From Minisyncoccia bacterium (GTDB lineage: Bacteria; Patescibacteriota; Minisyncoccia; Phycocordibacterales; UBA9973): a stretch of 64,000 nt of DNA. The translations under genes and the position numbers were made by a program. Shown here piece after piece: positions 3 to 61,322 of this stretch; positions within the stretch are counted from its first letter, which is position 1, and each line of letters begins with the position of its first letter. The stretch lies in contig JBBQGX010000002.1 in NCBI GenBank assembly GCA_038323465.1, positions 132 through 64,131 on the forward strand, read 5' to 3'. The notes beneath the pieces are model-generated. The model worked only from the letters and a program-made list of their open reading frames with translations. It was not told where the DNA came from and ran no database searches.

Positions 3-497
3 TCTGCCAATGGATCAGGTACGACTTATACTAGTAGCAGTATTTATCTATTAAACGCCGACCTTACTTTATATGCGATTTTTGAATTAATTCCTGTGCA
101 TCATAGCTCAGGGTCATCTGCCTCTTCTCGCTATAACAACCTTCTTGCTATGGGGAACATACAAGCAGCTAATCAATTAAAATTAGAATTCCCCACGATG
201 ATTACTCCAATAGCAACCCACAATTCTTTGGATGAGCAAGTAATCATAGAAATTACTTCAAAATACACATTCACCAAGATTCTTAAACAGAATATTTCCC
301 ATCCTGAAGTTAAAGAACTTCAGAAATATTTAAATACTCATGGTTATGTACTCGCTAAATCTGGAGCAGGCTCAGTAGGAAAGGAGACAACTAAATTTGG
401 TCCCGCTACAAAGAAAGCTGTTATTAAGTTTCAGATTACTAATGGTTTAAAAGGGGATGGAGTTGTAGGACCAATGACTGTATCTAAGATGAAGTAA
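3..497 (+). CDS. 3' part of a larger gene; protein ending in a peptidoglycan-binding (PG_binding_1-like) domain
   Basis: This frame is open from the first bases of the window to the TAA at 495-497. The track start at 96 (GTG) is therefore probably internal. The C-terminus HPEVKELQKYLNTHGY...FGPATKKAVIKFQITNGLKGDGVVGPMT fits the PG-binding repeat pattern. Confidence 0.6.
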   Translation, partial: SANGSGTTYTSSSIYLLNADLTLYAIFELIPVHHSSGSSASSRYNNLLAMGNIQAANQLKLEFPTMITPIATHNSLDEQVIIEITSKYTFTKILKQNISHPEVKELQKYLNTHGYVLAKSGAGSVGKETTKFGPATKKAVIKFQITNGLKGDGVVGPMTVSKMK

Positions 498-510
498 CAA
501 TTTAAAAAAT

Positions 511-648
511 AGTATTAAAAGGGGTAGGGGAACCTATCTCTTGTAAACATAATAGTCGAAGCTCATGGAGTATAGGACCCTTGAACGTTCAGTTAGTTTA
601 TTTAGCCCTTTAATTTAGGGTTATTGTAGGCTAATAGGAGTTGAACTA
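511..648 (+). repeat. Intergenic repeat, module X (511-582) plus module Y (588-648)
   Basis: Y (ttcagttagtttatttagccctttaatttagggttattgtaggctaataggagttgaacta) recurs at 1711-1771 with 54/61 identity and no gaps. X (agtattaaaaggggtaggggaa...) has a diverged copy at 4333-4406. Confidence 0.7.
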
Positions 649-679
649 ATTTAATATTATCTGTTACAATAAGTATATT

Positions 680-1612
680 ATGAAAAAAAATCTAAAAGTT
701 ATTGGGATTATTTGTATTATTTTTGTTTTATTTGTAATTGCTGGTATGTATAAGTTTAATTATTTGTCTGGTAAATCTGGGTATGATGTTGATGGGAACA
801 AGATGGTATTGTCTGATTATAAAAATACCTCGTATACTATCGATGGTCAGATAGTGAAGCTTGTTGATGGTATTTCTGAAGTAGAATCAGCTCCAGGTTC
901 TGCTTCGAAGATCATTACTAAATATTTTGGTAATGAGATTAAAAAAGATCTAAATGGAGATGGTAAAGATGATATAGCTTTTCTTGTAACTCAAGAGAAT
1001 GGGGGGTCTGGAACATTCTTTTACGTTGTAGCAGCACTTAATACTTCTAATGGATATATAGGTTCTCATGGAGTCTTACTTGGAGATCGTATCTCTCCAC
1101 AAACAACAGAATCAGGCAAAGGTAATTCAATAATCGTTAACTATATGGACAGGGTTTTTGGAGAACCAATGACCACGTCTCCGTCTGTTGGTAAGAGTAT
1201 CAAATTAATTTTAGATCCTACTACAATGCAATTTGGAGAATTGGCTCAAAATTTCGAAGGAGAAGCCGACCCAAAACGAATGAGCCTTAACATGAAAACA
1301 TGGAAGTGGGTAAAAGCTGAATCTAGTGATGGGGAAATTGTTGTTCCAAAAAAAGATTCATTTACTCTTACTTTCAAAAAGGATGGAACTTTTGGAACTA
1401 CCACAGATTGTAATATTGCCGGAGGAAAGTATGATTTGAAAGATAATACTATCGTCTTTAGTAATATATTTTCTACAAAAATGTACTGTGAGGATTCTCA
1501 AGAAAATTATTTTATTTCTTTATTAGATAAAACTAATGGATATCTTTTTACTTCAAAAGGCGAACTTGTGTTAACTCTTAAATCAGATAGTGGATCTGTT
1601 TATTTTAAGTAA
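680..1612 (+). CDS. Membrane-anchored protein with C-terminal META (HslJ-like) domain
   Basis: N-terminal hydrophobic helix (VIGIICIIFVLFVIAGMY). The C-terminal ~105 aa (WKWV...TTDCNIAGGKYDLKDNTIVFSNIFSTKMYC...LFTSKGELVLT) fit the META domain pattern. Confidence 0.7.
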   Translation: MKKNLKVIGIICIIFVLFVIAGMYKFNYLSGKSGYDVDGNKMVLSDYKNTSYTIDGQIVKLVDGISEVESAPGSASKIITKYFGNEIKKDLNGDGKDDIAFLVTQENGGSGTFFYVVAALNTSNGYIGSHGVLLGDRISPQTTESGKGNSIIVNYMDRVFGEPMTTSPSVGKSIKLILDPTTMQFGELAQNFEGEADPKRMSLNMKTWKWVKAESSDGEIVVPKKDSFTLTFKKDGTFGTTTDCNIAGGKYDLKDNTIVFSNIFSTKMYCEDSQENYFISLLDKTNGYLFTSKGELVLTLKSDSGSVYFK

Positions 1613-1710
1613 TAAATCATTACTATCAGTATATTTTGCATATAAATTATCCATATATTCTGTATTTTCTAGTATAACTATAATAAAACTCGGCTAGAGA
1701 CTCTCCTACA

Positions 1711-1771
1711 TTCAGTTGGTTTGTTTAACCTTTCAATTTAGGGTTATTGTAGGGTGATAGGAGTTGAACTA
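1711..1771 (+). repeat. Intergenic repeat module Y, copy 2
   Basis: 61 nt, 54 identical to 588-648. Some substitutions keep the small hairpin (gccc..gggt versus aacc..ggtt). Confidence 0.7.
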
Positions 1772-1900
1772 TTCATATTTCATAATTAAGTTATGAAAGA
1801 AAAACTAGAGATGACTTGTATAAAGGATAGAGGGGGTCGAATTATTAATTATTAAAAAATATCCCGTAAAAATTTAGAATTCACGGGACGCATAAAATAT

Positions 1901-2305
1901 ATGAAAATTAAAAAGAATATAATTGCTGTGTTTACTTTAGCTATCATTGGAGTTATTGGACTCATAGCTGTTAATTCAGTTTCTGCTTATAGAGGGGATC
2001 CAAGTGTTAAAGGACCAAATTATGCAGTAGAGAGACATGACGCAATAGAAAAAGCTTTTGAAACTAATGATTACACAGCTTGGAAAAATCTTATGCAAGG
2101 AAGAGGTCGTGTCGCAATAGTTGTGACTAAAGACAATTTTGCAAAATTTGCTCAAGCTCATAATTTAGCTCTACAAGGTAAAACAACTGAAGCAAGTGCA
2201 ATTAGAAAAGAATTAGGTTTAGGATTAAAAGATGGGAGTGGACAAAATAGTGGTTTTGGTCTTGGACGAGGTCAAGGAATAGGACACAGAGGGATGATGA
2301 GATAA
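1901..2305 (+). CDS. Hypothetical secreted protein with Gly-rich C-terminus
   Basis: Signal-peptide-like N-terminus (IIAVFTLAIIGVIGLIAVNSVSA). No family recognised. Followed by a clear terminator. Confidence 0.6.
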   Translation: MKIKKNIIAVFTLAIIGVIGLIAVNSVSAYRGDPSVKGPNYAVERHDAIEKAFETNDYTAWKNLMQGRGRVAIVVTKDNFAKFAQAHNLALQGKTTEASAIRKELGLGLKDGSGQNSGFGLGRGQGIGHRGMMR

Positions 2306-2316
2306 TTTAAGATAAT

Positions 2317-2361
2317 AAAAGGTATTTACTGCAGGGCTCACTCCGCGATAAATACCTTTTA
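2317..2361 (+). terminator. Rho-independent terminator
   Basis: aaaaggtattta (2317-2328) pairs with taaatacctttt (2349-2360) around a GC-rich loop. The right arm ends in a T run. Confidence 0.7.
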
Positions 2362-2406
2362 TTGCCTTAGAAAATATAATAAATAATTGTGTTAAAATTA
2401 TAATGT

Positions 2407-4285: not shown

Positions 4286-4332
4286 AAAGTACCTTTGTAA
4301 AGGTTTATCTTAAAAGAGGATAATTAAACAAT

Positions 4333-5649: not shown

Positions 5650-6280
5650 AATTCCAAAAAATATAGTAATCATGTTAATTTTTGTCGCAGTTTTGCATAT
5701 ATTACGGGTTATTTTTTTTGGAAACTACGCATTTACTTATATATTGTGGAATATTCTTTTAGCTTTTGTTCCATTTTTAATAAGTTCTATATTAATTTTA
5801 TGGACAAATAAGAGTAATATATTTAAACCATTATTTATTATAGGATTCATCTTTTGGTTATTATTTTTACCGAATGCCCCCTATGTCGTAACTGACTTAA
5901 TTCACTTAGGTAGGATTCGGGTGGTTCCCGTGATGTATGATGCTTTTGTTTTATTTTCTTCTGCTTGGGTTTCACTTTTGATGGGACTATATTCTATAAA
6001 TCATATGGAAAAGATGTTTCTTTTGCGATTTTCAAAGAAAGTTACAAATATAATAATTGCATTTGTTATTTTGTTCACTAGTTTTGGGATGTATCTGGGT
6101 CGTTTTTTACGTTTTAATAGTTGGGATTTTTTTACTAGCCACATATCACTTTTATCTAGTATTTGGGAGGTATTTACAAAATCAAATGATTATATAAACG
6201 TTTATTCTTATACGCTACTATTTTTCTTTTTTATATACACTTCTTATCTATCTTTTAAGCAGACAGATATACGGGGATAA
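5630..6280 (+). CDS. Integral membrane protein, DUF1361-like
   Basis: Six or more hydrophobic helices and the motif LPNAPYVVTDLIHL. The family name is recalled from memory. Confidence 0.5.
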   Translation: MQIRKIKIPKNIVIMLIFVAVLHILRVIFFGNYAFTYILWNILLAFVPFLISSILILWTNKSNIFKPLFIIGFIFWLLFLPNAPYVVTDLIHLGRIRVVPVMYDAFVLFSSAWVSLLMGLYSINHMEKMFLLRFSKKVTNIIIAFVILFTSFGMYLGRFLRFNSWDFFTSHISLLSSIWEVFTKSNDYINVYSYTLLFFFFIYTSYLSFKQTDIRG

Positions 6281-6413
6281 CATTAATTTTGTTGCATAAA
6301 ATAAAATGATTATGATATAATATAGTTATTAATCCTATCTAGAGGGTACGTTGTTTTTGTTAATAATTATATTTAATAATATTATCTCATTTTGAGTAAT
6401 TATCTTTAATAGA

Positions 6414-6764
6414 ATGGAAAAACTAAATGTATTTCAAATAGAAAGACCATGGGGGAATTTTAGACAGTTTACTAAGAACGAATCTTCAACTGTAAAAATT
6501 ATTACCGTAAGACCAAATGAATTATTAAGTTTACAGACACATAGTAAAAGATCAGAGTTTTGGCATATAATATCCGGAGAAGGTTTTGTGGAGATAAATG
6601 AAACTAAGAAAGAGACAAAAACAGGTGATGAACACGAAATTCCTGTCGGTTCAAAGCATCGTTTATCGGCTGGACCATTAGGATTACGATTACTTGAGAT
6701 TGCTATTGGTGATTTTGACGAGGAAGACATTGTTCACCTTGAAGATAAATATGGAAGAGTTTAA
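6414..6764 (+). CDS. Cupin-fold mannose-6-phosphate isomerase (type II PMI C-terminal domain-like)
   Basis: RPWGNFRQF...VKIITVRPNELLSLQTHSKRSEFWHIISGEG...IPVGSKHRL matches the ManC-type PMI cupin. Confidence 0.8.
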   Translation: MEKLNVFQIERPWGNFRQFTKNESSTVKIITVRPNELLSLQTHSKRSEFWHIISGEGFVEINETKKETKTGDEHEIPVGSKHRLSAGPLGLRLLEIAIGDFDEEDIVHLEDKYGRV

Positions 6765-6769
6765 AAAAT

Positions 6770-8101
6770 ATGGCTAATGAATCAAAGAAAAAATCAAAGA
6801 ATTTATTTGGGTCACTTTTTAAAAAAGTAGCTAATTCCATGAGGATGAGTAATAAAAAAGATAAATCTATCATCGCAAAGAAAAAGATCCAAGATATTAA
6901 TGTTAGTAAAATAAAGAAAGTTTTAGTTTCTAAGAATGTTAAAGTAATAAAAAATCCAAAAATAAAAAAAGAAAAGAAAATTTTACCAAAAGTTAAGAAA
7001 ACTCTCAAAGGAAAAAAAAGGGTTGAAAAGAAAGTTGAAACGGTTAAGGCGGAAAAGCCAATTAAATTAAAAAAAGTTTCTCATAATCCCATAATTTCTC
7101 CGAGTCTATATAGTTGGGAATCGAAAGCAACATTTAATCCAACAGCTTTTGTTTCAGAGGATAAGGTTCATATAATATATAGAGCAATGGGGGAAGATGA
7201 TTCATCGGTTCTCGGCTATGCCTCGTCCTCTGATGGGCTGACTATTGATGAGCGTCCAACTTATTGTATTTATAAAAGATTGAATAATTATGTAAAAGAA
7301 GGGTTACCACTTAATTATTCATCAGGAGGAGGTTGGAATGGTGGCTGTGAAGATCCTAGGATTACGCTAATTAATGATACCCTATACATGATTTATACTG
7401 CTTTTGATGGTTGGGGCTCACTTCGTATGGCCCTTACTTCAATACTACTTTCAGATTTTAAGAATAAAAAATGGAATTGGAAAAAAGAAGTTCTTATTTC
7501 ACCACCAGGAGAGATGAATAAAAATTGGGTTCTTTTCCCTGAAAAGATAAATGGTAAATTTGCGATAATGCATAGTTTCTATCCAAATATTTTAATTAAT
7601 TATTTTGATAGTTTAGATGAACTTGATGGCAAAAAATTTATCAAAAGTAATAATACTAGACCAATAGACAAGGATCGTACTTGGGATTCATGGTTTCGAG
7701 GGATTGGTCCAACTCCAATAAAAACAGCAGAAGGATGGTTGGTTCTCTATCATGCTATGGACCATAGAAACCCCGATAGATATAGAATGGGAGCACTTAT
7801 TCTAGATTTGAATGATCCAACTAAGGTTCTTTATAGATCAAAGAACCCTATACTTGAGCCAGAAGAAACATATGAAAATAATGGTCATAAGTGGGGAGTA
7901 ATTTATTCTTGTGGTGCTGTATTAAAGCTTCTACAATCAGGGAAAAATAATTCTAGTAAAAAAGAAGAATTATATGTATACTACGGTGGAGCTGACAAAT
8001 TTGTCTGTGTGGCTTCTATTCCATTATCAAAATTGATAGATAGTTTGAAGGAGGATAAAATTATTAAATTAAAAAATATAAAAAATAGGAAGGAAATATA
8101 A
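6770..8101 (+). CDS. GH130-family glycoside phosphorylase/hydrolase (beta-mannoside type) with Lys-rich N-terminal extension
   Basis: NPIISPS...WESKATFNPTAF...IIYRAMGEDDSSVLGYASSSDG...GCEDPRIT...GWLVLYHAM...YRMGALILDLNDP...VYYGGADKFVCVA. The first ~105 aa are about 40% Lys. Confidence 0.85.
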   Translation: MANESKKKSKNLFGSLFKKVANSMRMSNKKDKSIIAKKKIQDINVSKIKKVLVSKNVKVIKNPKIKKEKKILPKVKKTLKGKKRVEKKVETVKAEKPIKLKKVSHNPIISPSLYSWESKATFNPTAFVSEDKVHIIYRAMGEDDSSVLGYASSSDGLTIDERPTYCIYKRLNNYVKEGLPLNYSSGGGWNGGCEDPRITLINDTLYMIYTAFDGWGSLRMALTSILLSDFKNKKWNWKKEVLISPPGEMNKNWVLFPEKINGKFAIMHSFYPNILINYFDSLDELDGKKFIKSNNTRPIDKDRTWDSWFRGIGPTPIKTAEGWLVLYHAMDHRNPDRYRMGALILDLNDPTKVLYRSKNPILEPEETYENNGHKWGVIYSCGAVLKLLQSGKNNSSKKEELYVYYGGADKFVCVASIPLSKLIDSLKEDKIIKLKNIKNRKEI

Positions 8102-8104
8102 TAT

Positions 8105-10039
8105 ATGTATGTTGTTAAAAGATCAGAAGAGAATCCAATATTAATTCCTAATAACGATCATTACTGGGAAGAGTTTGCTACTTTCAATATGTGCCCAATA
8201 AAACATGGAAAAAATATCTATGGTTTATACCGAGCTATTTCAGCGGTAGATAATTTAACTAAACAAAAACAAGTTTCAATTATAGGAATAGGACGTAGTC
8301 GTGATGGAATACATTTTGATAACCGAACTCCTTTTATTGTACCAAGTTATGATTTTGATGCTTGTGGCTGTGAAGATCCAAGAGTTACTTTTTTTGAAGG
8401 GAAATATTATATTTTCTATACAGCCTTATCTAATTACCCCTTTGGATCAGATAATATAAAAGTAGCGGTTGCTGTATCAAAAGATTTGAAAAAAGTTGAC
8501 GAGCGTCATTTAGTAACTCCGTTTAATGCAAAAGCCATGACACTTTTCCCAAAGAGGATTAATGGTAAAATTGTTGTTGTTTTTTCTGCCTATACAGATA
8601 TGCCACCATCGAAAGTATGTATTGCTAAACTTGATAACATAGAACAACTCTGGGATGAAAAATTTTGGACGAAATGGGAGAAGGAGATAGATAAGCATTC
8701 TGTAGATTTTCGTCGCAATGAGTATGATCATCTAGAGATTGGAGCAACACCACTAAAAACAGAATACGGATGGTTACTCATATATTCTCACATTCAAAAT
8801 TATTTTAATGGACCAGAACATCTGGATCGCATTTTTGGTGTTGAGGCAATTCTACTTGATGTAAAAGACCCAACTAAAATTCTTGGTAGAACCAATGGCC
8901 CTATATTGGTTCCTGAGGAGAATTATGAACTTTCTGGTTATATCAAGGATGTGATTTTTCCATCCGGAGCACTTTTAGAAAAAGATAAACTCTCTATTTA
9001 TTATGGAGCAGCCGATACAACTGTTTGTGTTGCTCATGTTTCATTTAAGGATCTTATTAATACTATGAATCCTTCTAAAAATAATAAATGGAATCTCAAA
9101 CGTTATATAAATAACCCAACTATTATTCCAAAATCTGAAAATAAATGGGAAGCAAAAGCAACCTTTAATCCTGCTGCGATTTATCTGGGAGGGAAGGCCC
9201 ATATTCTTTATAGAACTCTTTCAGACGACAATACTTCTTATATTGGATATGCTTCAAGTAAAGATGGGTTAAAGATTGATGAAAGATTCAATGACCCTAT
9301 CTATGTTCCACGAGAGGATTTTGAAATGAAAAAGATACCAAATGGTAATTCAGGATGTGAAGATCCAAGATTAACTCAAATTGGTAAGAATATATATATG
9401 TGTTACACAGCTTATGACAGTGTAAATCCTCCTAAAGTAGCCATCACTTCTATTTCAGAGAAAGATTTTTTAGCTAAAAAGTTTAATTGGAGTAAGCCAT
9501 TTCTTATAACTCCGGATGGTATGGATGACAAGGATACTTGTATTTTTCCTGAAAAATTTAAAGAAGGCTATTTTATTTTACACAGAATGAATAATGAAAT
9601 TTGTGGTGATTATATAAAATCACTCGATGATGAAAATACAAGAGTAAATAAATGTATTAGAGTTATCGGGCCACGTGAAAATACTTGGGATAGTGCCAAG
9701 GTTGGAATAACTGCTCCACCAATAAAAACAAAATATGGATGGTTACTACTTTATCATGGTGTATCAAAAAGTCATTCTACTTATAGAGTAGGAGCATTGC
9801 TTCTCGATCTCAAAGATCCAGCAATAGTTCTAGCTCGTACTTCGGATCCGATATTTGCTCCTGAGAAAGACTATGAAAAGTTTGGAGTTGTAAACGGTGT
9901 AGTTTTCCCTTGTGGAATGATTGAGAAAAATGGAATACTTTATATATATTATGGAGGAGGGGATAAAGTCGTCGGAGTTGCCACAATAGAATTAAAGATT
10001 ATACTCGAAGCACTTGTTCGTGGTTCAAAGTTTAATTAA
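8105..10039 (+). CDS. Tandem double GH130 protein (two complete catalytic modules)
   Basis: Module 1: NPILIPN...CGCEDPRVT...GWLLIYSH...YYGAADTTVCVA. Module 2: NPTIIPK...SGCEDPRLT...GWLLLYHGV...YRVGALLLDLKDP...YYGGGDKVVGVA. Confidence 0.85.
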   Translation: MYVVKRSEENPILIPNNDHYWEEFATFNMCPIKHGKNIYGLYRAISAVDNLTKQKQVSIIGIGRSRDGIHFDNRTPFIVPSYDFDACGCEDPRVTFFEGKYYIFYTALSNYPFGSDNIKVAVAVSKDLKKVDERHLVTPFNAKAMTLFPKRINGKIVVVFSAYTDMPPSKVCIAKLDNIEQLWDEKFWTKWEKEIDKHSVDFRRNEYDHLEIGATPLKTEYGWLLIYSHIQNYFNGPEHLDRIFGVEAILLDVKDPTKILGRTNGPILVPEENYELSGYIKDVIFPSGALLEKDKLSIYYGAADTTVCVAHVSFKDLINTMNPSKNNKWNLKRYINNPTIIPKSENKWEAKATFNPAAIYLGGKAHILYRTLSDDNTSYIGYASSKDGLKIDERFNDPIYVPREDFEMKKIPNGNSGCEDPRLTQIGKNIYMCYTAYDSVNPPKVAITSISEKDFLAKKFNWSKPFLITPDGMDDKDTCIFPEKFKEGYFILHRMNNEICGDYIKSLDDENTRVNKCIRVIGPRENTWDSAKVGITAPPIKTKYGWLLLYHGVSKSHSTYRVGALLLDLKDPAIVLARTSDPIFAPEKDYEKFGVVNGVVFPCGMIEKNGILYIYYGGGDKVVGVATIELKIILEALVRGSKFN

Positions 10040-10128: not shown

Positions 10129-11912
10129 ATGGAAAATAGAAAAGACTACTCAAATCTACACAGAATGCTTGTGCTAAAATATTTTTGGCAGGTTATAAGA
10201 CGATTTAAAATATCGTTTTTTACTATTATTATATTATCTGTAGTGTCTTCTTTTTTGGATATCTATATACCACTTAAGTATCTAAAATTATGGGATGTTT
10301 TAAATACAAATGACTTTAGTCTTGTCTCTACTGCTAAATCTTTAATAATTTTAATTTTATTATTTAACTTTTCACGCTGGGCACTAAGAAGAGCTGTAGG
10401 TTATACAAATGATTATTTCCAAACAAATGTAATGGAGGGATTAAGGAAGCAAGCCTTTTCTTATATGATAGGGCATTCTCATAATTTCTTTGCAAATAAT
10501 TTTGGTGGGTCACTGACTTATAGAGTAAATAAATATGCTAGAGCTTTTGAAAGATTAATGGATAGATTCGTAGATGATGGTATGCCACTTGTTGTTAGAT
10601 CTCTAGGTACTATAATAGCCATCTATACTCTGATGCCGAAGTATTCATATATTCTTACTGTATTTTCACTCATATTTTTAATTACAGCTCTTGTATTTAC
10701 AAAATATAAATTGAAATATGATGTTATTGCTGCCGAGTCTGACTCAAAAACAACAGGTGCTCTTTCAGATTCCATAAGTAATCATTCATCTATTCAACTT
10801 TTTGCTGGTCACGAATATGAAAATATAAAAGTAGGAAAAGTGATAGAGAGTCAAAAGAAGGCAACAGTATTTAATTTATATTTATGGGAAACATTAGGGG
10901 CTATCCAAAGTTTCTATATATTAGCTATTGAATTTGTAATTTTTTGGTTAGCTATAGGAGATTGGAGAGCTGGACTTATTGGAGTACCTGTAATAGTAGT
11001 TCTTTAAAGTTATATTATTCGTCTAAGTGAAAGCTTGTGGCGTTTTGCTGGTATTGTCAGAGTTTTCTATGATGGTTTCGCTGATGCTCAAGAAATGGCA
11101 ATTATTTTAGATATGTCCTATGAAGTTGATGATGAAATTACCAATAATTTAATTAAAGTGAAAGGAGAAATTATTTTTGATAATGTGACTTATGTTTATG
11201 AAAATAATAATCAAAAAGTTTTTGATAATTTTTCTCTTACAATAAAAGCAGGGGAGAAAGTTGCAATCGTTGGATCATCTGGTGCAGGGAAGTCTACATT
11301 TGTTAAACTCTTAATGCGACTCTTTAATCTACAAGAGGGAAGAATACTCATCGATAATATAGATATATCAAAAATATCTCAAAAAAATCTACGTGAACAG
11401 ATAGGCTTTGTTCCTCAAGATCCAGTTTTATTTCACAGGTCTCTAATGGAGAATATTCGTTATGGTAGACGTGATGCGACAGACGAAGAAGTAATAAGGG
11501 CTGCAAGCCTAGCATATTGTGAGGATTTTATTAGCAATTTACCATTGGGTTATAATACATATGTTGGAGAGAGAGAGGGATTAAACTCTCAGGTGGTGAG
11601 CGTCAACGAGTAGCTATTGCCCGTGCAATACTAAAGAATGCTCCGATCCTTGTACTTGATGAGGCAACATCAGCGCTTGATTCTGAGTCCGAATCAGTTA
11701 TTCAGGACGCACTTCATAATCTAATAGAAGGCAAGACGGTTATAGTTATCGCTCATAGATTATCGACTATTCGTGACATGGAACGTATTATTGTTATTTC
11801 AAATGGAAAAATTGAAGAAGATGGAACACATGATGAATTGATTGAAAAAGAAAATGGTATATATAAAAAACTTTGGGATATTCAATCCGGGGGATTTAAG
11901 CTGAAAATTTAA
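10129..11912 (+). pseudogene. Disrupted ABC exporter (MsbA-like TMD-NBD fusion): in-frame TAA plus +2 frameshift
   Basis: The TMD ORF 10129-11007 and the NBD ORF 11035-11613 are in the same frame, separated only by the TAA at 11005-11007. The NBD signature [16 protein letters not shown]...LDEATSALD...IAHRLSTI continues in another frame from 11580 to the TAA at 11910-11912. Confidence 0.75.
11567..11576 (+). repeat. (GA)5 dinucleotide tract at the frameshift site
   Basis: gttg-gagagagaga-ggg. Removing one GA restores [15 protein letters not shown]. Confidence 0.85.
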
Positions 11913-32461: not shown

Positions 32462-32473
32462 TTTTTGGTTACG

Positions 32474-32542
32474 CAGAAACATGAAATTTTTCCCGCTTTA
32501 CCCCAAAGGGGCCCTACACGGATAAAAATTTTCATGTTTCTG
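32474..32542 (+). other. Palindrome with conserved 33-nt GC-rich central core (copy 1)
   Basis: Arms cagaaacatgaaattttt and aaaattttcatgtttctg. Core cccgctttaccccaaaggggccctacacggata at 32492-32524 is 32/33 identical to 53208-53240. Confidence 0.85.
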
Positions 32543-32558
32543 TTTCACCATTTTATTT

Positions 32559-33077: not shown

Positions 33078-33098
33078 TTGTATTTTAAAATTTAAATT

Positions 33099-33184
33099 AA
33101 TGTATTTGGAAGTGAGGTTAAATTCCTCCACTGTGCCGCAACGGTAATACCCCGAAAAGGGGATAAGTCCGGTCTTAATACATT
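33099..33184 (+). promoter_or_regulatory. Cobalamin riboswitch aptamer (short form lacking the long peripheral extension)
   Basis: P1 aatgtatt/aatacatt. Core TGGAAGTGAGGTTAAATTCCTCCACTGTGCCGCAACGGTAA matches the conserved GGGAA..GGTG.AA.TCC..C.G..CCGC.AC.GTAA block. Followed by AAGTCCGG (compare AAGCCAGGA). The downstream genes are DUF4430-type B12 binders. Confidence 0.7.
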
Positions 33185-33227
33185 GATGTTTCCCGAGCAG
33201 GAGAATATCTCTAAAATATTTAGACAT

Positions 33228-47521: not shown

Positions 47522-47563
47522 TCAAAATACACATACAAGCTATGACTTATATGTGTATTTTGA
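47522..47563. terminator. Hairpin after the pilus operon
   Basis: tcaaaatacacata / tatgtgtattttga, a 14-bp perfect stem with a 14-nt loop. Confidence 0.55.
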
Positions 47564-48374: not shown

Positions 48375-49496
48375 ATGAAATCAATAAAAGACATAGAAAA
48401 TTTGAAAGGAAAGAAAGTGGTTGTTCGAGTAGATTATAATGTTCCTATGGATGGCGATAAAATAACAGATGATTTTCGTATTAGGGCATCATTACCTACT
48501 ATCGAATATTTACAGAAGAAGGGGGCTATTGTAGTACTACTAGCTCATATAGGGGACGATGCGACTAGTAGTTTAAAACCAGTAGCGATAAGACTTAAAA
48601 AATTTATTTCAAATCTTAATTTTATTGAAACTTCTATTTTTTCAGATAATACAGAAAAAATTGTAAATAATTTAAAGAGTGGAGATGTGGTACTACTTGA
48701 AAATCTTCGCCGAGAAATAGGGGAGAAGAAAAATGCACCGTCTTTTGCGAGAGCTCTTTCACGATACGGAACTATCTTTGTAAATGATGCATTTTCAGTC
48801 TCACATCGTCCCCATGCTTCCATCGTAGGGATTACGAAATACCTACCAGGCTATGCTGGGTTACAAATGATAGATGAAGTTAATCATTTATCAAAAGCTT
48901 TTAATCCAAAACATCCATTTTTATTTATTCTTGGTGGTGCTAAATTTGAAACAAAAATTCCACTCATAAAGAAATTCCTTCGTGACGCAGATCATGTCTT
49001 TATAGGGGGAGCACTTGCCAATGATTTCTTTAGAGCAAAGGGATATACTGTTGGCACATCACTAGTAAGTGATGGAAATATTTCCATAAAACCTTTTGCA
49101 AAAAGTAGTAATTTGATAATTCCTATTGATGTGATTGCAAGTAAAGACGGAAAGACTCGCGATATTAAACCAAGTGATGTTGCATCCGATGAATGTATTG
49201 TCGATATAGGTAATGAGACAGTTACTAAATTGGGTGAACTTATCGAGAAAGCAAGTTTTATCCTTTGGAATGGACCACTTGGTAAATATGAAAGTGGATT
49301 TTCTTCATCAACTGAAAAAATATTGAAATTAATTTCAAAAAGTAAAGCCAATAGTGTAATAGGTGGAGGAGATACTGTAGCAATAATTTCTAAATTAAAA
49401 CTCGGTGATAAGCTCGGATTTGTTTCAACTGGGGGAGGGGCGACACTCGATTTCCTTGCAAAAGGAACACTGCCGGGGATTAAAGCATTGAAATAA
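48375..49496 (+). CDS. pgk: Phosphoglycerate kinase
   Basis: VRVDYNVP..., FVNDAFSVSHR, GGAKFETK and the GGGDT/GGGATL motifs. Confidence 0.9.
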   Translation: MKSIKDIENLKGKKVVVRVDYNVPMDGDKITDDFRIRASLPTIEYLQKKGAIVVLLAHIGDDATSSLKPVAIRLKKFISNLNFIETSIFSDNTEKIVNNLKSGDVVLLENLRREIGEKKNAPSFARALSRYGTIFVNDAFSVSHRPHASIVGITKYLPGYAGLQMIDEVNHLSKAFNPKHPFLFILGGAKFETKIPLIKKFLRDADHVFIGGALANDFFRAKGYTVGTSLVSDGNISIKPFAKSSNLIIPIDVIASKDGKTRDIKPSDVASDECIVDIGNETVTKLGELIEKASFILWNGPLGKYESGFSSSTEKILKLISKSKANSVIGGGDTVAIISKLKLGDKLGFVSTGGGATLDFLAKGTLPGIKALK

Positions 49497-49512
49497 AAAT
49501 AAAAATAAATAT

Positions 49513-49547
49513 AAAATACCACACAATCTTCGCTTGCGTGGTATTTT
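49513..49547 (+). terminator. Terminator after pgk
   Basis: aaaataccac / gtggtatttt, a 10-bp stem with a 15-nt loop. Confidence 0.6.
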
Positions 49548-49583
49548 ATATTTATAATCATTTTTTATGTTACAATCATCAAT

Positions 49584-51901: not shown

Positions 51902-53200
51902 ATGTCTAAAAAAGAAATCGTAATAATATTTATTTTAATTACAGTAGCTTGTGGGCGGTTTTTCTTTTTTATTCCGAAAGCACCTGACTTTGGTAGTGCA
52001 GTAGGGAAGAGTGTAGAGTTGATTGGAATAGTTAGTGATGACCCAGATATAAGGTTGAAAAATAAGCATTTAAATGTGACTTTGATAGATAGGGATGTAA
52101 ACATTTTGGTTATTATTGATAGAAACGTACTCGTTTCTTATGGAGATAAAGTAGAAGTTAGAGGAGTACTTGAGGAGCCAGAGAATTTTATTACAAATTC
52201 TGGAAAAGAATTTAATTATAAGAGATATTTATCAAATCAAGATATTTATTACACAATTAAAAAAGCAGATATAAAAATATTATATAGTGGTAATGGAAGT
52301 AAATTAAAATTATTTCTATATAATCTGCGTGCGTCATTTATTGAAAATATAAATCAGGTTATTTCGATGCCAGAGAGTGATCTCGCCAATGGTCTCATTC
52401 TTGGTGTGCGTGGTGGTTTTGACCAAGACATGAATAATGAATTTATTCAAACTGGAACGATTCATATCATCGCTTTATCTGGCTACAATGTCTCTATTGT
52501 AGCGAAGGGGGTGATGGGGTTTTTTGGTTTAATTTTCTCTAGCACTATTGCTATTATTTTTGGAATAATAATGATTATATTATTTATAATAATGGCAGGA
52601 GCATCAACGACTGCAATCAGGGCAGGGGTAATGGCTGTCATTATGTTATTAGGAAAGATGACAGGTAGAAGATATGATGCTGGGCGTGCACTTATTATCG
52701 CCGCGCTTCTCATGATTACTTATGATCCACGAGTTATCATAGATATGTCTTTTCAGCTTTCATTTTTAGCAACGGGTGGTGTCCTTTTTGTTACTCCCAA
52801 GGTTGTAAATTGGTTTTGGTGGTTACCCTTGCGATTTGAGATAAGAGAGACAATGGCAACAACCGTCGCAGCGACTATCTCTGTCCTTCCTATATTACTT
52901 TATTTAACTGGAGTTTTATCTCTTGTTTCTATTTTTGCAAATATTTTAATATTACTATTTATCCCATTCACTATGCTCCTGTCTTTTATTGTTGGAATGG
53001 TTGGATTTATTTCACCCATAATTTCAATTCCGTTTGGATATATTGCACATTTGATACTTCTGTATATTCTTTCAGTAATTCATTTTTTTGCATCACTGTC
53101 GTTTGCTAGTGTGACAATACAATCATTTCCATTACTCTTCACGATTTTAATATATGGATTCTTGATTTATTGGGTGTTTCGAAAAGAGGACAAGATATAA
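51902..53200 (+). CDS. comEC: ComEC/Rec2 N-terminal part (OB-fold DUF4131 plus competence membrane domain), lacking the MBL domain
   Basis: SYGDKVEVRGVLEEPENF... (OB-like), then GTIHIIALSGYNVSIVA and multiple TM helices. Confidence 0.8.
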   Translation: MSKKEIVIIFILITVACGRFFFFIPKAPDFGSAVGKSVELIGIVSDDPDIRLKNKHLNVTLIDRDVNILVIIDRNVLVSYGDKVEVRGVLEEPENFITNSGKEFNYKRYLSNQDIYYTIKKADIKILYSGNGSKLKLFLYNLRASFIENINQVISMPESDLANGLILGVRGGFDQDMNNEFIQTGTIHIIALSGYNVSIVAKGVMGFFGLIFSSTIAIIFGIIMIILFIIMAGASTTAIRAGVMAVIMLLGKMTGRRYDAGRALIIAALLMITYDPRVIIDMSFQLSFLATGGVLFVTPKVVNWFWWLPLRFEIRETMATTVAATISVLPILLYLTGVLSLVSIFANILILLFIPFTMLLSFIVGMVGFISPIISIPFGYIAHLILLYILSVIHFFASLSFASVTIQSFPLLFTILIYGFLIYWVFRKEDKI

Positions 53201-53266
53201 AATTCTCCCCGCTTTATCCCAAAGGGGCCCTACACGGATAAGAATTTTATATCTTGTCCTCTTTTC
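53181..53266 (+). other. Perfect 26-bp inverted repeat with conserved 34-nt GC-rich central core (copy 2)
   Basis: Left arm gaaaagaggacaagatataaaattct (includes the comEC stop at 53198-53200). Core ccccgctttatcccaaaggggccctacacggata at 53207-53240. The right arm at 53241-53266 is the exact reverse complement of the left arm. Confidence 0.9.
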
Positions 53267-53278
53267 TATCTGCTAATT

Positions 53279-53872
53279 TTATTTTGTATTTTTAAAATTT
53301 TCTTCTATTGCCTCCCAGTTTAAATTTTCAAAAAAGCTTTCTATGTAGTTTTTTTTCTCAGATGGGATATAGTCTAGATAATAAGCATGTTCCCACATAT
53401 CTAGAGCTAAGATAGGGGTGAGGCCTACTAGATGTCCTATATGTTGTTCATCTACCCACTGTGTGATTAATTTGCCAGTCTGTTTATCATAGTAAAGCAT
53501 AGCCCATCCTACACCACGAGTCATAGCTAAAGCTTTGAATTTCTCTAACCATGATTCGAAATCTAACTCACTTTGTGCGATAGCACGTTTTAAGTTAGAT
53601 TCATTTTTTAATTCTTTTCCACCACCTGAGAGTGAAGAGAAGTATATTTCATGATTTCTCATGCCTCCGAATTCAAAAGCAAATCTACGATGAAGCTCAC
53701 TTAGAACATATGCATTCTCAGATTGGTTTTGTTCGTATTCTTTTATTTTATTTAAAACTAGATTAGAATTAGCTACATAACCTTTGTAAAGTTTAAGATG
53801 TTCCTCAATACTCTTAGTACTAATACCTTTTAGTTCCCTTAACTCAAATATTTTTGGTTTAAATGTTTCCAT
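53279..53872 (-). CDS. Fe/Mn-family superoxide dismutase
   Basis: DMWEHAYYLDY (Asp and His ligands), NHEIYF, and an N-terminal His in IEEHLKLY. 197 aa. Confidence 0.85.
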   Translation of the reverse strand: METFKPKIFELRELKGISTKSIEEHLKLYKGYVANSNLVLNKIKEYEQNQSENAYVLSELHRRFAFEFGGMRNHEIYFSSLSGGGKELKNESNLKRAIAQSELDFESWLEKFKALAMTRGVGWAMLYYDKQTGKLITQWVDEQHIGHLVGLTPILALDMWEHAYYLDYIPSEKKNYIESFFENLNWEAIEENFKNTK

Positions 53873-53992: not shown

Positions 53993-54874
53993 ATGTATTG
54001 TACCATGAAGCAAATTATAAAAAATATACTATATTTATCCTTTATCTTATTGGTTACTTTAACTGCTTTTATTTGGTTTTATATTTATCAGAATAGTTTG
54101 ACTGACAAATATTTAAAAATTGTTTTTTTGGATGTTGGGCAGGGTGATGCTATCTATATAGAGGCTCCAAATGGTAAACAGATGCTGATAGATGGAGGAC
54201 CTGACGCAAAATTACTTTCAAGTTTGGCTAAAGTTATGCCTTTTGCTGACCGGTCTATAGATATTATCCTAGCGACACATGGAGACCAAGATCATATCGG
54301 AGGGTTTCCTTTATTATTAGAGAATTATAAAGTAGGGAATATCATAGAGAATGGAGCAATCTCTAACTCGAAAGTATTTGTTAGTCTCGAAGAAAAAGTA
54401 AATAAAAATAAAATAAATAAAATTATTGCAAGAAAAGGAATGCATGTGATTTTAGATCAAAATAGAAATATTTATTTTGATATTTTGTTTCCCGATAGAG
54501 ACATCTTGAATTTTGAAAGTAATGATGGCTCCATAGTAGGGAAGCTTGTCTATGGACATGAGTGCTTCATGTTTACAGGAGATGCAACAACGTACACAGA
54601 GAATCTGATAGAGTGGAATGAAAGTGATAATATCCTAAAGTGTGATGTTTTAAAGCTAGGGCATCACGGCTCTCACACATCTTCAAGTGAACTTTGGCTT
54701 GAAAAAGTGGAACCAAGCATAGCTATAATTTCTGTAGATAAGAATAATAAATATGGTCACCCACACCAAGATGTTTTAGATAGATTAAAAAAGTTGAACA
54801 TCCCATTCTTAAGTACAGCAGATAAGGGAAGTATAATATTTAAAACAGATGGAGAGAAATTAATACAAAAATAA
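53993..54874 (+). CDS. ComEC C-terminal metallo-beta-lactamase domain protein with its own N-terminal TM helix
   Basis: VFLDVGQGDAIYIEAPNGKQMLIDGG, ILATHGDQDHIGG, LKLGHHGS, KYGHPH. The ATG at 54005 is an alternative start. Confidence 0.8.
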   Translation: MYCTMKQIIKNILYLSFILLVTLTAFIWFYIYQNSLTDKYLKIVFLDVGQGDAIYIEAPNGKQMLIDGGPDAKLLSSLAKVMPFADRSIDIILATHGDQDHIGGFPLLLENYKVGNIIENGAISNSKVFVSLEEKVNKNKINKIIARKGMHVILDQNRNIYFDILFPDRDILNFESNDGSIVGKLVYGHECFMFTGDATTYTENLIEWNESDNILKCDVLKLGHHGSHTSSSELWLEKVEPSIAIISVDKNNKYGHPHQDVLDRLKKLNIPFLSTADKGSIIFKTDGEKLIQK

Positions 54875-54909
54875 AAAACCACAGGTCTTGCTTGTGGTTT
54901 TTTATTTTT
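54874..54909. terminator. Terminator between convergent genes (comEC MBL part and rpmB)
   Basis: aaccacagg-tcttg-cttgtggtt followed by a T run. Confidence 0.7.
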
Positions 54910-54952
54910 GTATTTGAATTTAATTTATTTCCTTGACTCTTGTCACTGTTTA

Positions 54953-56129: not shown

Positions 56130-59057
56130 ATGAATATTTTTAAACATAAAATTGGTTCTTTTTCGTATTTAATAAAAATATTCTCAATATTTTTATTCAT
56201 GATACTTTTTGCAGCATATGCAAATACTTTTGCGGTTTTTTCTCCAGGACAAACTCTAGATCCAAATTGTGCTCCTGGGATTGTCGGTTGTATTGTTGAA
56301 ATACTTCCAAATCAATTAGGTAACAATGGTAAATATTTATCAACAGATGGAACAATAGCAACATGGGTAAGTACCCCCATTGGAGTAACAGCTTATCCAG
56401 CTTCTGGTATCCCAAATTCAACCGGTTCTGAATGGGGAACATCATATACAACATCAGGGAGTGGAAATGTCCTTGCTCTTGCAACTTCTCCAGTATTTGT
56501 AACTCCAACATTAGGTATAGCCACTGCAACTTCAATAAACAATTTACCATTGTTACAAGACAATATAGATTTTAATATTAAAGTGGGTCAAGATGCAGGA
56601 CTTAATCTTGTGGCAGGATCACAATTTAATACTTTTATAGGCTATGAAGCAGGAAAGGGTGGAATAGGTGGAACAAACGCTTATTATAATACTGCGGTAG
56701 GTTATAATTCCCTTTATTCTAATACTACAGGAAATAATAACACTGCCAGTGGAACAAATTCCCTTTATTCTAATACTACAGGAAATAATAACACCGCAAA
56801 CGGAGAACATTCTCTCTTTCAAAATACTACAGGATATAACAACACTGCCAATGGAGGTCAATCTCTCTTTTTAAACACTACAGGAGGTAATAACACCGCT
56901 AGTGGAAATCAATCTCTCTACCGCAATACTACAGGATATAACAACACTGCAAACGGAGAAAGTTCTCTCGCTCAAAATACTACAGGATATTACAACACTG
57001 CAAACGGAAGTCGTTCACTTTTATTCAACACTACTGGGTCACATAATACTGCCAATGGAATGCTATCAGGTATGTTTATAGCAGATGGCATAACTGGAAA
57101 TACTACAGGCAGTAATTCTCTTTTCCTAGGTTACGATACCAGAGCCCAAGCTGATGCACAAACCAATCAGATAGTAATAGGAGCAAGTGCTATTGGTAAT
57201 GGTAGTAATACAGCAACTATAGGAAATAATAATTTACTCCGTACTTATCTCACAGGTCTAAATCTAAAAGCTGGCACCGTCACCGCCGGAACTGCCCCAC
57301 TAAAGCTAACGAGTGGAACCAACCTTACCACCACCGAAGCCGGAGCCGTCGAGTACGACGGCTCACACCTTTACTTCACTGCAACAGATGCAGGAGTTCG
57401 TTATCAACTTGATCAGCAAGGTGGGGGAGGAGGACTTTCAAGCGATGCAGATTTTAATACAAAAGGTGGAACAAATGCAGGGTTGAATCTTGTAGCAGGA
57501 GCACAATATAATACTTTCTTAGGCTATGAAGCAGGGAAATCTGATGGTGCTGGTGGAACAAATACAGCAGATAATAATATTGCAATAGGTTATCAAGCTC
57601 TATATGAGAATACTACTGGGGATTCTAATATCGCCAATGGAGTTCGATCTCTCTTTCATAACACTACTGGGTATTCTAATACTGCCAATGGATATGAATC
57701 TCTTTTATTTAACACCACTGGATCTAATAACATTGCCAATGGATATCAATCTCTATACGGTAATATAACAGGAAATGCCAACACCGCCAGTGGAAATAAT
57801 TCTCTTTTCTACAACAGCACTGGATCTAATAATACTGCCAATGGATATGAATCTCTTTTCTACAACAGCACTGGATCTAATAATACTGCCAATGGAATGT
57901 ATTCACTTACCTCCAATACCACAGGAAACCAAAATTCAGCATTAGGAATGAATACTCTATACTCCAACACAACCGGATCTCAAAACACCGCCAATGGATA
58001 TAATTCTCTTTATTCCAACACTATAGGAAGTTATAACTCTGTATTAGGAATGTATGCAGGTCGTTACATTGCCAACGGTACAACGGGTAGAATTACAGGG
58101 GACAATGGACTTTATCTTGGTTACAATTCAAAAGCAAGTGCTGATGGAACAGATAACGAGATAGTCATCGGTGCTTCAGCTATTGGTAACGGTTCAAATA
58201 CCACTACCCTCGGGACAAACAATGTCCTTTATGTAGGTAGTAGTGGTATTTCTGGTATGGTTGCCCGCTTTACAAACAATGCTGGATACTGTGATATCAA
58301 TCCTCTAACTGCGTCTCTTGTTTGTTCATCTGATTTTAATTTAAAAAAGAACATTACAACTCTTGATGATAAAGAATTTATTTTGCAAACAGTTCCTATA
58401 ATGGTTACTAGCACTCTTGATAAAATTTTAGCTCTCACCCCTGTGACATACAACTGGAAGAATATTGAGAATGATTCAAAACACCCAGGATTCATCGCTC
58501 AAGATATGGAAAACTATTTTCCAGAGCTAGTTAGTACAGATACAAAAATGGATCCAGTTACAGGTAAGTATTTAAAGTCTATTGCTTACGCCAACCTAAC
58601 CCCTTACTTAGTGAAAGCAATACAAGAAATGAATTTAAAAATTGAAGGGATAAATAATTTTGAAGTAGATGAAAATGGTAATAGTGTGGTTAATAGTTGG
58701 AGAGATTCTATGGTTGCTTGGTTTGGAAATACGAAGAATGGAATAATCGAATTTGTTGGAGTAACAATTCGTGCCAAGGATAAATTGTGTGTTGGAGAGG
58801 GTAATGAAGAAGTCTGTATAACAAAAGAGGATTTATTGCAAATTAAAAATAATGCATCTCTTAAAAAAGATGATGTTTTAATAAAAATAGAACCAAGTAT
58901 CGAAAATATTGATTTAGTTATTCCAGATAAAATTGTTCCAGAGACCACACCTGCGGTGGAAGTAATAAAAGAAATAGTAAAAGATGTAGTTCCAAATAAA
59001 GAAGCAGTACCAGCTGAGGTAGTAGTAAAGGAAGTAATTGCAACCCCTCAAGAATAA
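56130..59057 (+). CDS. Tail-fibre-like surface protein: two ~290-aa arrays of N-T-T-G-x-x-N-T-A-N-G repeats plus a C-terminal S74 intramolecular-chaperone domain
   Basis: N-terminal signal/anchor. Repeats SLYSNTTGNNNTASG and similar occur in two duplicated blocks (about 56560-57250 and 57440-58220). SSDFNLKKNITTL...LTPVTYNWK...HPGFIAQDMENYFPELV...IAYANLTPYLVKAIQEM (about 58326-58650) matches the endosialidase-chaperone (peptidase S74) pattern. Confidence 0.75.
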   Translation: MNIFKHKIGSFSYLIKIFSIFLFMILFAAYANTFAVFSPGQTLDPNCAPGIVGCIVEILPNQLGNNGKYLSTDGTIATWVSTPIGVTAYPASGIPNSTGSEWGTSYTTSGSGNVLALATSPVFVTPTLGIATATSINNLPLLQDNIDFNIKVGQDAGLNLVAGSQFNTFIGYEAGKGGIGGTNAYYNTAVGYNSLYSNTTGNNNTASGTNSLYSNTTGNNNTANGEHSLFQNTTGYNNTANGGQSLFLNTTGGNNTASGNQSLYRNTTGYNNTANGESSLAQNTTGYYNTANGSRSLLFNTTGSHNTANGMLSGMFIADGITGNTTGSNSLFLGYDTRAQADAQTNQIVIGASAIGNGSNTATIGNNNLLRTYLTGLNLKAGTVTAGTAPLKLTSGTNLTTTEAGAVEYDGSHLYFTATDAGVRYQLDQQGGGGGLSSDADFNTKGGTNAGLNLVAGAQYNTFLGYEAGKSDGAGGTNTADNNIAIGYQALYENTTGDSNIANGVRSLFHNTTGYSNTANGYESLLFNTTGSNNIANGYQSLYGNITGNANTASGNNSLFYNSTGSNNTANGYESLFYNSTGSNNTANGMYSLTSNTTGNQNSALGMNTLYSNTTGSQNTANGYNSLYSNTIGSYNSVLGMYAGRYIANGTTGRITGDNGLYLGYNSKASADGTDNEIVIGASAIGNGSNTTTLGTNNVLYVGSSGISGMVARFTNNAGYCDINPLTASLVCSSDFNLKKNITTLDDKEFILQTVPIMVTSTLDKILALTPVTYNWKNIENDSKHPGFIAQDMENYFPELVSTDTKMDPVTGKYLKSIAYANLTPYLVKAIQEMNLKIEGINNFEVDENGNSVVNSWRDSMVAWFGNTKNGIIEFVGVTIRAKDKLCVGEGNEEVCITKEDLLQIKNNASLKKDDVLIKIEPSIENIDLVIPDKIVPETTPAVEVIKEIVKDVVPNKEAVPAEVVVKEVIATPQE

Positions 59058-60085: not shown

Positions 60086-60130
60086 GTAAAAGGGGCAGAC
60101 TGAAAGTCTACCCCTTTACTTGCTTTTTTT
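60086..60130 (+). terminator. Terminator upstream of rpsL
   Basis: aggggcagac-tgaaa-gtctacccct (one mismatch), followed by ttgcttttttt. Confidence 0.6.
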
Positions 60131-60185
60131 GGGTCTTTATAGTAAAGTATTTGGACTAGTCATTCGTGACTTTTTTAATTTAAAT

Positions 60186-60611
60186 ATGCCTACAATTAAC
60201 CAATTGGTTCGCAAGAGCCGTAAAATAATCAAAAGAAAATCTAAAGCTGTGGCTTTGGCTCGTGGTTTTAATTCTATTAAGAACAAACCTGTATTTTACC
60301 CAGCTCCATTTAAACGCGGAGTTTGTACAAAAGTTTCAACAACTACTCCTAAGAAACCTAACTCCGCTCTCCGAAAGATTGCTCGTGTTAGACTTACTAA
60401 TGGAATGGAAGTTACAGCTTATATTCCAGGAGAAGGACACAACCTACAAGAACACTCAGTTGTCATGATTCGTGGAGGCCGTGTGAAAGACTTGATTGGA
60501 GTTCGATACCACATTGTTCGCGGACGTCTCGATACTACAGGGGTAGAGAAGCGCCGACAATCAAGAAGTCTCTACGGTACAAAGACACCAAAAGCAGCAG
60601 CAAAAAAATAA
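60186..60611 (+). CDS. rpsL: 30S ribosomal protein S12
   Basis: [10 protein letters not shown]...[12 protein letters not shown]...[30 protein letters not shown]. The ATG at 60186 is the true start, not the track start at 60120. Confidence 0.95.
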
Positions 60612-61116: not shown

Positions 61117-61137
61117 CCTTAAGGTAGTACTTAAAAG

Positions 61138-61163
61138 AAAAAATTCCCTTAAGGGAATTTTTT
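61138..61163 (+). terminator. Spacer-less palindromic terminator after rpsG
   Basis: aaaaaattccctt / aagggaatttttt followed by a T run. Confidence 0.75.
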
Positions 61164-61322
61164 TGTTTAAGTATATATATATAGATTAAAATATTTTCTA
61201 TAATTTACCGGTTCAACGCTATCGCGTAAAACTGGTAAATTGGAGGAATAATACTTTTTTAAAAAAATGGAGAGTTAAGATCTAGTTAATACAGAGATAA
61301 AACATTGTTAAGATAGAGTTTC

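Follow-up and report, generated by a model that had tools for sequence, protein, structure and literature searches.

Rickettsia palindromic elements (RPEs) are small palindromic repeats that lie between genes and also in frame within unrelated housekeeping genes, to whose protein they add a peptide without destroying it, and a terminator-like repeat named SPRITE is listed in the same publication (PMC10969869). Perfect inverted repeats are likewise tolerated in translated genes of Nematomorpha mitochondria (PMC6649704). The element analyzed here, designated W2, is a perfect palindrome around a GC-rich core at the comEC/sod junction of a Minisyncoccia bacterium. It lies in a stretch of 64,000 nucleotides (GenBank assembly GCA_038323465.1, contig JBBQGX010000002.1, positions 132 to 64,131), hereafter called the window. 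With a probability of about 0.62, W2 is a copy of a low-copy family of small (~75 to 90 bp) hairpin-forming DNA elements that behave as selfish palindromic DNA of the type of RPEs or of the MITE type (MITE, miniature inverted-repeat transposable element). Carriers of the family are Patescibacteria, namely, Nomurabacteria/Paceibacteria, and in addition a Saccharibacteria metagenome-assembled genome (MAG).

The two arms of W2 (GAAAAGAGGACAAGATATAAAATTCT on the left) are complementary at 26 of 26 positions and enclose a core of 34 nt with the sequence CCCCGCTTTATCCCAAAGGGGCCCTACACGGATA, exactly as the initial annotation had described. Its statement that the left arm comprises the end of ComEC including the stop codon was confirmed as well, the open reading frame (ORF) terminating in RKEDKI-TAA with the last six codons and the stop inside the arm. 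No match to the inverted repeat pattern was obtained in 100 shuffles, and the fold energies were -44.7 kcal/mol on the plus strand (z = -7.5) and -49.9 kcal/mol on the minus strand (z = -9.6). The G+C content of the W2 region is ~32%, in contrast to the GC-rich core, in which CTTTAT and CCCTACA are conserved unpaired stretches. The outer end of the right arm, TCCTCTTTTC, is U-rich, and the stop codon of the superoxide dismutase (SOD) gene lies 12 nt from this arm. The positions of all parts are given in Table 1.

A second copy, W1, is present in the window. Its core (32491-32524) differs from that of W2 by two mismatches, and its arms (32466-32491 and 32525-32550) are 85% complementary, with outer parts unrelated to the W2 arms. 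W1 begins 5 nt past the stop codon (32461) of nrdJ, the gene for B12-dependent ribonucleotide reductase. Beyond the window, the core was found at about 12 loci (L numbers) in Patescibacteria assemblies, in all of them as the loop of a long AT-rich hairpin. A 20-mer from the core matched 2 of 185,579 GTDB species genomes (the Saccharibacteria MAG L001 and the Nomurabacteria MAG L002), and a 21-mer from the other core half matched 10 metagenome contigs; these collection scans used exact 20- to 21-mers and thus under-sample diverged copies. Conservation across the copies extends to the core half outside the search pattern and is therefore not just a matter of ascertainment. A covariance-model search detected a further diverged copy inside tgt on L007, and the same search with filters off found no further degenerate copies in the window, where only AT-rich terminator-like hairpins scoring <27 bits were returned. 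Copies are carried in ~10 distinct gene contexts, with two copies in the window and two on L007.

A viral origin was rejected, as two core patterns gave no match among the IMG/VR viral contigs. Identity of W1 or W2 with a known RNA family was also rejected: E-value scans against Rfam around both copies returned only sub-threshold generic hairpin matches of the miRNA-precursor or snoRNA kind. Full-text literature searches gave no description of such elements in Patescibacteria. In the Rfam 15 gathering scan of the window, the only match was to the AdoCbl (B12) riboswitch. This riboswitch (33081-33213, 61 bits) is located upstream of a DUF4430 gene, beside an ECF S-component-like gene and just downstream of nrdJ, the gene with W1 at its 3' end.

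The consensus structure was derived from an ungapped alignment of 10 copies and consists of a 20-bp stem along with two small helices, the closing helix CCG/CGG of 3 bp and the mini hairpin CCCC/GGGG of 4 bp. Double-sided changes occur in 18 of the 29 pairs, with 91.4% of cells paired, and the covariation score was 0.528, compared to 0.165 for shuffled alignments (0/500) and 0.09 to 0.16 for slid partners. Compensatory changes in the helices were observed in diverged copies, namely, CCG/CGG to GCG/CGC and CCCC/GGGG to CCC/GGG or CAC/GUG. The inner stem (AAATTYT/ARAATTT) and the unpaired CTTTAY and CCCTACA are conserved, and the outer arms are AT-rich and vary from copy to copy with their complementarity kept. 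Inverted arms of 16 to 26 bp are found in all copies, often ending in CAGAA or CAAGA, and many are perfect (26/26, 24/24, and 19/19). The mismatches in the stems are symmetric, with nine G.U and nine A.C, and neither strand is thus favored as RNA.

Each of the six intergenic copies immediately follows the 3' end of a gene, and the core is sense in four of them and antisense in two; the other copies lie in frame within coding regions (Table 1). In comparison to solved structures, the UvrA copy falls in an insertion of ~43 aa after the conserved RLxxE..V..G block, and the Tgt linker measures 36 aa versus 7 aa, the extra 29 aa corresponding to approximately the whole 81-nt hairpin. The frame used by the genic copies is free of stops throughout the element. 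In most intergenic copies, among them W2, that frame contains a TAA or TGA just before the inner stem. Such a distribution of open and stopped frames is predicted by selection on translated inserts. Translational bypass or excision from the RNA was rejected, since the genic copies are always open in frame. A motif acting at the protein level was rejected on account of the invariant and GC-rich third codon positions, the reading of other frames or of the other strand at the same site, and the existence of intergenic copies.

The in-frame host genes (four genes) mostly encode DNA-repair or nucleic acid enzymes, and the window copies adjoin nrdJ and comEC; this bias may be real or due to chance given the small number. 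A window ORF at 56130-59057 was rejected as an element-free UvrA for comparison, as it is not UvrA. Its product of 975 aa ends in a Peptidase_S74 (endosialidase chaperone) domain of the sort found in large surface proteins or proteins resembling phage tail fibres.

Table 1. Positions of W2 and its parts, of the neighboring genes, and of the other copies of the family (MBL, metallo-beta-lactamase)
Feature	Position	Strand	Remarks
ComEC-like gene, no MBL domain	51902..53200	+	Pfam DUF4131 and Competence
W2 left arm	53181..53206	+	ComEC codons (R)KEDKI, TAA at 53198-53200, 6 nt more
W2 left arm, inner part TAAAATTCT	53198-53206	+	Inner stem conserved across the family
W2 core	53207..53240	+	Hairpin loop, GC-rich, conserved
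W2 core, closing helix	CCG 53209-53211 / CGG 53235-53237	+	
W2 core, mini hairpin	CCC 53218-53220 / GGG 53225-53227	+	
W2 right arm	53241..53266	+	Exact reverse complement of the left arm
W2 right arm, inner part AGAATTTTA	53241-53249	+	Conserved in the family
Fe/Mn SOD gene	53279..53872	-	Convergent with comEC
MBL-fold gene	53993..54874	+	Separate "second half" of ComEC
Intergenic copy W2			3' of comEC and sod
Intergenic copy W1	32466..32550	+	Same orientation as W2; 3' of nrdJ
Intergenic copy L001			3' of rbfA, just upstream of tRNA-Cys; core antisense
Intergenic copy L012			3' of tig, upstream of clpP; core antisense
Intergenic copies L004 and L009			3' of unnamed ORFs
In-frame copy L007 uvrA	5831..8629 (gene)		
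In-frame copy L007 tgt	208..1521 (gene)		
In-frame copy L008 uvrC	979..2400 (gene)		Between GIY-YIG and RNase H-like domains
In-frame copies L002 and L010 rnhB (RNase HII)			Same site in both

Insertion at a single site of rnhB was followed in the 120 best RNase HII homologs of L002 (54 to 84% identical). The site, between SLxK[VI].. and ..[IV][FY]LDGG, is an insertion hot spot; it is empty in 49 of the 120 and filled in ~70, with a modal linker of 17 aa in empty versus 38 aa in filled genes, which are longer by 21 to 24 aa. Among the filled genes, ~45 read RFTP[KE]GPY, 10 use another frame (ALPSxRG), and 7 apparently read the reverse strand (RVGAPxERVKR). Some inserts contain an extra nested insert of ~25 aa, duplicated arms, or two elements in tandem. 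At the DNA level, L021 carries the core variant CGCGCTTTACCCTCTCTACGGGGGCTCCGACACG in frame 3, and L020 carries the exact reverse complement of that core (34/34) at the same site, with covariance-model scores of 33.8 bits on the minus strand versus 21.5 bits on the plus strand. In L022, a 78-nt nested insert lies within the core just 3' of the mini hairpin. L019 has a different GC-rich core between perfect 19-bp arms, and its host protein shares 84% identity with the L002 protein. Since one site is read in different frames and on either strand, the sequences argue that the encoded peptide is incidental and that the conserved object is the nucleic acid, irrespective of its orientation toward transcription. 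Some of the empty alleles (e.g., VATQD|SVNVF and VASSDYKIF) resemble deletion remnants.

The palindrome had been tied in the initial annotation to the split of ComEC, and this suggested link is removed by the relatives. The 120 best ComEC homologs (68 to 80% identical; Nomurabacteria/Paceibacterota) all consist of DUF4131 and Competence only and lack the MBL domain; they are 413 to 470 aa long, save one 388-aa fragment, and end soon after WWVF[KR]K with variable tails. The gene order RecJ-RNaseH-ComEC-SOD(-)-MBL is kept in L013, L016, L017, and L018, in none of which the W2 core is present at the comEC/sod junction. As both the short ComEC and the gene order are found in relatives without the core, the split arrangement is ancestral; it is independent of the element, which is ruled out as its cause.

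The palindromes at this junction differ among the relatives. In the closest relative, L013, whose ComEC is 80% identical and has the tail LKEDKIPTKNLSS, a different near-perfect palindrome covers both gene ends (27-nt arms at 4289-4315 and 4318-4344, 96% complementary). L016 (~2803-2925) and L017 (~2888-3011) share another conserved GC-rich insert of ~95 nt (…ATTCTCGGACTCACCACGAATATTTTCCTRCTGGAAAATTTCTC…CTCGAGAACATTTTT) in a hairpin with conserved arms, the left arm of which provides the last ComEC codons and the stop in L016; no Rfam family matches this insert, and the window lacks it. In L018, only 7 nt separate comEC and sod. More GC-rich hairpin pieces were noted in L017 (~2815-2850 and ~3075-3110), one of them inside the 3' end of its SOD ORF, which measures 211 aa versus 194 to 198 aa in relatives and suggests another family of in-frame inserts.

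Long hairpins over gene ends are ordinary in this lineage, as L013 and the window itself illustrate, and the argument that a terminator would not need 26 perfect AT-rich pairs does not hold here. At 54862-54914, between convergent genes, lies a perfect 22/22 AT-rich hairpin with a 9-nt loop, which is called terminator-like and has no conserved core. Its geometry is that of W2, the final codons of the MBL gene and their stop falling in the left arm. More AT-rich hairpins at gene boundaries (18- to 32-nt arms, 78 to 94% complementary) were found at 49495-49565, 2297-2380, 61128-61173, 47522-47563, and 14805-14850, and terminator-like hairpins with long stems seem to be the rule in this genome. 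The 26 perfect AT pairs over the end of a coding sequence are thus unexceptional, and it is the conserved loop that makes W2 stand out.

In the manner of selfish palindromic DNA, the element occurs at unrelated sites and is present or absent between close relatives. Behind genes its hairpin could act as a terminator, possibly in both directions, and inside genes the element would survive only with an open frame, translated as an incidental peptide of ~25 aa. At the junction studied, the ComEC frame enters the left arm and stops at the TAA on the boundary of arm and inner stem; this stop codon is contained in the element and may be supplied by it. It had been proposed that the right arm must be an inverted copy of the gene end; this is not forced, because both arms are extra at other sites (rnhB and tgt), and the ComEC frame may merely continue into an inserted element and meet the TAA of the latter. 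Perfection of the arms would be kept by pressure for hairpin formation, probably helped by intrastrand template-switch correction copying one arm onto the other, a quasipalindrome process established in Escherichia coli (PMC7202029). The position between convergent genes, the A-rich and U-rich ends of the stem, and the analogy with neighboring and orthologous hairpins suggest that W2 may serve as a bidirectional terminator; its U-rich TCTTTTC is partly inside the stem, and a terminator scan with a loop limit of 8 nt calls only an alternative small stem at 53236-53259.

Several observations weigh against this interpretation. Neither a transposase domain in the window ORFs nor any other partner was detected, and transposition itself was not observed. 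A clear target-site duplication (CTTCG) flanks only two copies, L007 uvrA and L022 rnhB; elsewhere the two flanks show no more than a likeness to YTYCR, and those of W2 are TTTCG and CTATC. Near-identical cores are enclosed by unrelated outer arms within one genome (W1 and W2; L007 uvrA and tgt), which is not what simple copy-and-paste of a whole hairpin predicts. The KEDKI codons of the outer left arm of W2 are also present in the core-less L013, and by this argument part of the arm is native. The family is rare, given the two species genomes with the core 20-mer among the 185,579 searched, and among 1.84 billion representatives a profile of the in-frame peptide had no matches except a fragment of RNase HII and one unrelated repeat protein. 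Finally, the strong conservation of the core could reflect a host function instead.

Of the alternatives, the one that survives best, though we consider it unlikely, confines mobility and conservation to the core with its short inner stem (~50 nt). This unit would land in a hairpin or nucleate one, and the outer arms would be local, one of them native (here the ComEC tail) and the other its inverted copy made by fold-back or template switching. The hairpin-targeting insertion considered in the initial annotation belongs here and stays a live option, given the same KEDKI tail codons without the core in L013. These codons are AAA GAG GAC AAG ATA in W2 and AAA GAA GAT AAA ATT in L013, differing only at third positions. 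At these gene ends, relatives have long palindromes of their own whose loops contain other sequence or nothing, and within one genome the outer arms around near-identical cores are unrelated. The insertion nested in the L022 core next to the mini hairpin, the occurrence of replaced cores, and the many perfect arms (26/26, 24/24, and 19/19), as expected if freshly templated, fit local arms too. On the other hand, both arms are extra relative to empty sites, with a gain of 21 to 24 aa in rnhB (approximately the whole hairpin) and of 29 aa in tgt for a hairpin of 81 nt, and coding regions should not offer pre-existing hairpins. The arm ends CAGAA and CAAGA and the flanking YTTCR recur at unrelated sites, and arms similar to the inner arm of W2 (CAAGATAT) are found in L003 and L022 (P = 0.003 to 0.013, uncorrected). 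The statistics on native versus element-derived W2 arms are weak both ways.

A bolder model, to which we assign little probability, makes the loop rather than the arms the conserved unit throughout. A structured DNA core of ~34 to 50 nt would home into hairpins or create them, have its arms regenerated locally by intrastrand templating, flip freely between these arms, take up nested inserts, and be exchanged for other cores at one site, possibly through an HUH-type enzyme acting on single strands and maybe with a preference for, or an effect on, repair genes (rnhB, uvrA, and uvrC). Palindromic DNA of Patescibacteria would then be mobilized or maintained in a way that has not been described before.

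It is improbable that the stem with its conserved apical domain is a functional structured RNA, i.e., a terminator, a stabilizer, or a protein-binding 3' element. The strong covariation in all three helices, the conserved unpaired stretches, the location of all intergenic copies at gene 3' ends, and the commoner sense orientation would agree with such a role. The core nevertheless occurs in both orientations (L020 and L021 have it in opposite directions at one rnhB site, and it is antisense in L001 and L012), some copies sit in the middle of coding regions, the equal numbers of G.U and A.C mismatches (9 versus 9) leave no strand signature, and Rfam gives only generic miRNA-precursor hairpin matches.

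There is a slim chance that the core is a DNA site beneficial to the host, which a conserved protein would bind once it is extruded into a hairpin or cruciform, with a role in replication or repair or as a switch modulating repair genes. Conservation of the core far exceeds that of the surrounding sequence, even at diverged orthologous sites (L002 and L010; L020 and L021, 34/34), a function of this kind would not depend on orientation, and the hosts are apparently enriched in DNA metabolism (rnhB, uvrA, and uvrC, with the neighbors nrdJ and comEC). Against it, ~40% of rnhB orthologs are without the element, close relatives have a different core, there are only one or two copies per region at sites that are not conserved, and no candidate for the binding protein was found.

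An independent Logan assembly (L023, SRR19962012, a contig of 1411 nt) extends through the ComEC end, left arm, and core and breaks off 8 nt into the right arm, as de Bruijn contigs do at inverted repeats. Although palindromes can be artifacts and this contig ends within the right arm, a fold-back chimera of assembly or library can hardly be credited, because W2 is internal and flanked on either side by an intact gene of the convergent pair, independent projects yielded the same architecture at >12 loci (in >10 unrelated assemblies), the sequence of one locus is shared by three assemblies (L001, L005, and L006), and the left arm, core, and start of the right arm of W2 were reproduced independently.

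To our knowledge, mobile DNA has rarely been reported from Patescibacteria, with their tiny genomes, and the family indicates that palindromic inserts are tolerated in frame inside their core repair and tRNA-modification enzymes. For annotation, it accounts for unusual tails at C termini, for what look like additional loops in conserved proteins, and for broken contigs, and elements of this kind likely fragment short-read assemblies of these genomes. The natural series of empty, filled, flipped, nested, and replaced sites allows the evolution of hairpins in coding DNA and the perfection of their arms to be studied. With the same series it can be asked whether covariation can arise from templating at the DNA level rather than from selection on RNA.

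Other features of the window were noted. A single frame of 3385 aa extends over 14764-24921 on the plus strand. The ORF for ribosomal protein S12 (60120-60611, 163 aa) matches Pfam from residue 57 and may have an N-terminal extension or a start called too early. Adjacent ORFs at 10129-11007 and 11035-11613 contain ABC_membrane and a partial ABC_tran, the ATPase match covering profile positions 2 to 93 of 137, and may represent a split or decaying ABC exporter gene.

Compared with RPEs, the family is also found in frame and without stops in unrelated genes (uvrA, uvrC, tgt, and rnhB), W2 itself with its TAA not being an in-frame copy. The elements are of ~80 bp versus ~100 to 150 bp for RPEs, and the host phylum is another one. 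RPE families keep a conserved peptide, whereas here frame 2, frame 3, or the reverse strand may be read at one rnhB site. Conservation is confined to the loop and the inner stem, the arms covary, and the copy number is very low; kinship with RPEs in sequence is not to be expected.

The family resembles MITEs in being non-autonomous and <100 bp long, in its terminal inverted repeats (here 16 to 26 bp), in the short direct repeats at some copies (CTTCG), and in the presence of copies at unrelated sites with presence or absence between relatives. The location at gene 3' ends and a hairpin resembling a Rho-independent terminator are shared with MITEs and SPRITE. In MITEs, however, the terminal inverted repeats are conserved and bound by the transposase and the center is variable, which is reversed here, and no insertion sequence or transposase matching the family arms was present among the window ORFs. 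Repetitive extragenic palindromic (REP) sequences and REPINs are likewise extragenic hairpin palindromes, REPINs being long hairpins of ~100 nt. The CTAC beside the mini hairpin of the family core presumably recalls the GTAG/CTAC tetranucleotide of REPs. REP arms, in contrast, are conserved, REPs occur in hundreds of copies and are not reported as in-frame coding inserts, and no Y1/HUH transposase (the RAYT partner) was found in the window or the examined flanks.

With intrinsic terminators W2 shares the position between convergent genes, the A-rich 5' flank, the U-rich 3' end of the stem, and a very stable stem, but a conserved GC-rich loop of 34 nt is no part of a terminator, and hairpin and core also occur in the middle of genes. 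The GC clusters and byp elements of yeast mitochondria are GC-rich structured mini-inserts in a very AT-rich genome, sometimes inside genes. The family too consists of GC-rich structured mini-inserts in AT-rich DNA, some of them within genes; byps break the reading frame and the ribosome skips them, whereas the genic copies of the family are always open and need no bypassing. The Nematomorpha palindromes differ in that they encode conserved parts of proteins and have no conserved loop. Both the GC clusters and the Nematomorpha palindromes are more distant analogies to the W2 family than RPEs and MITEs.

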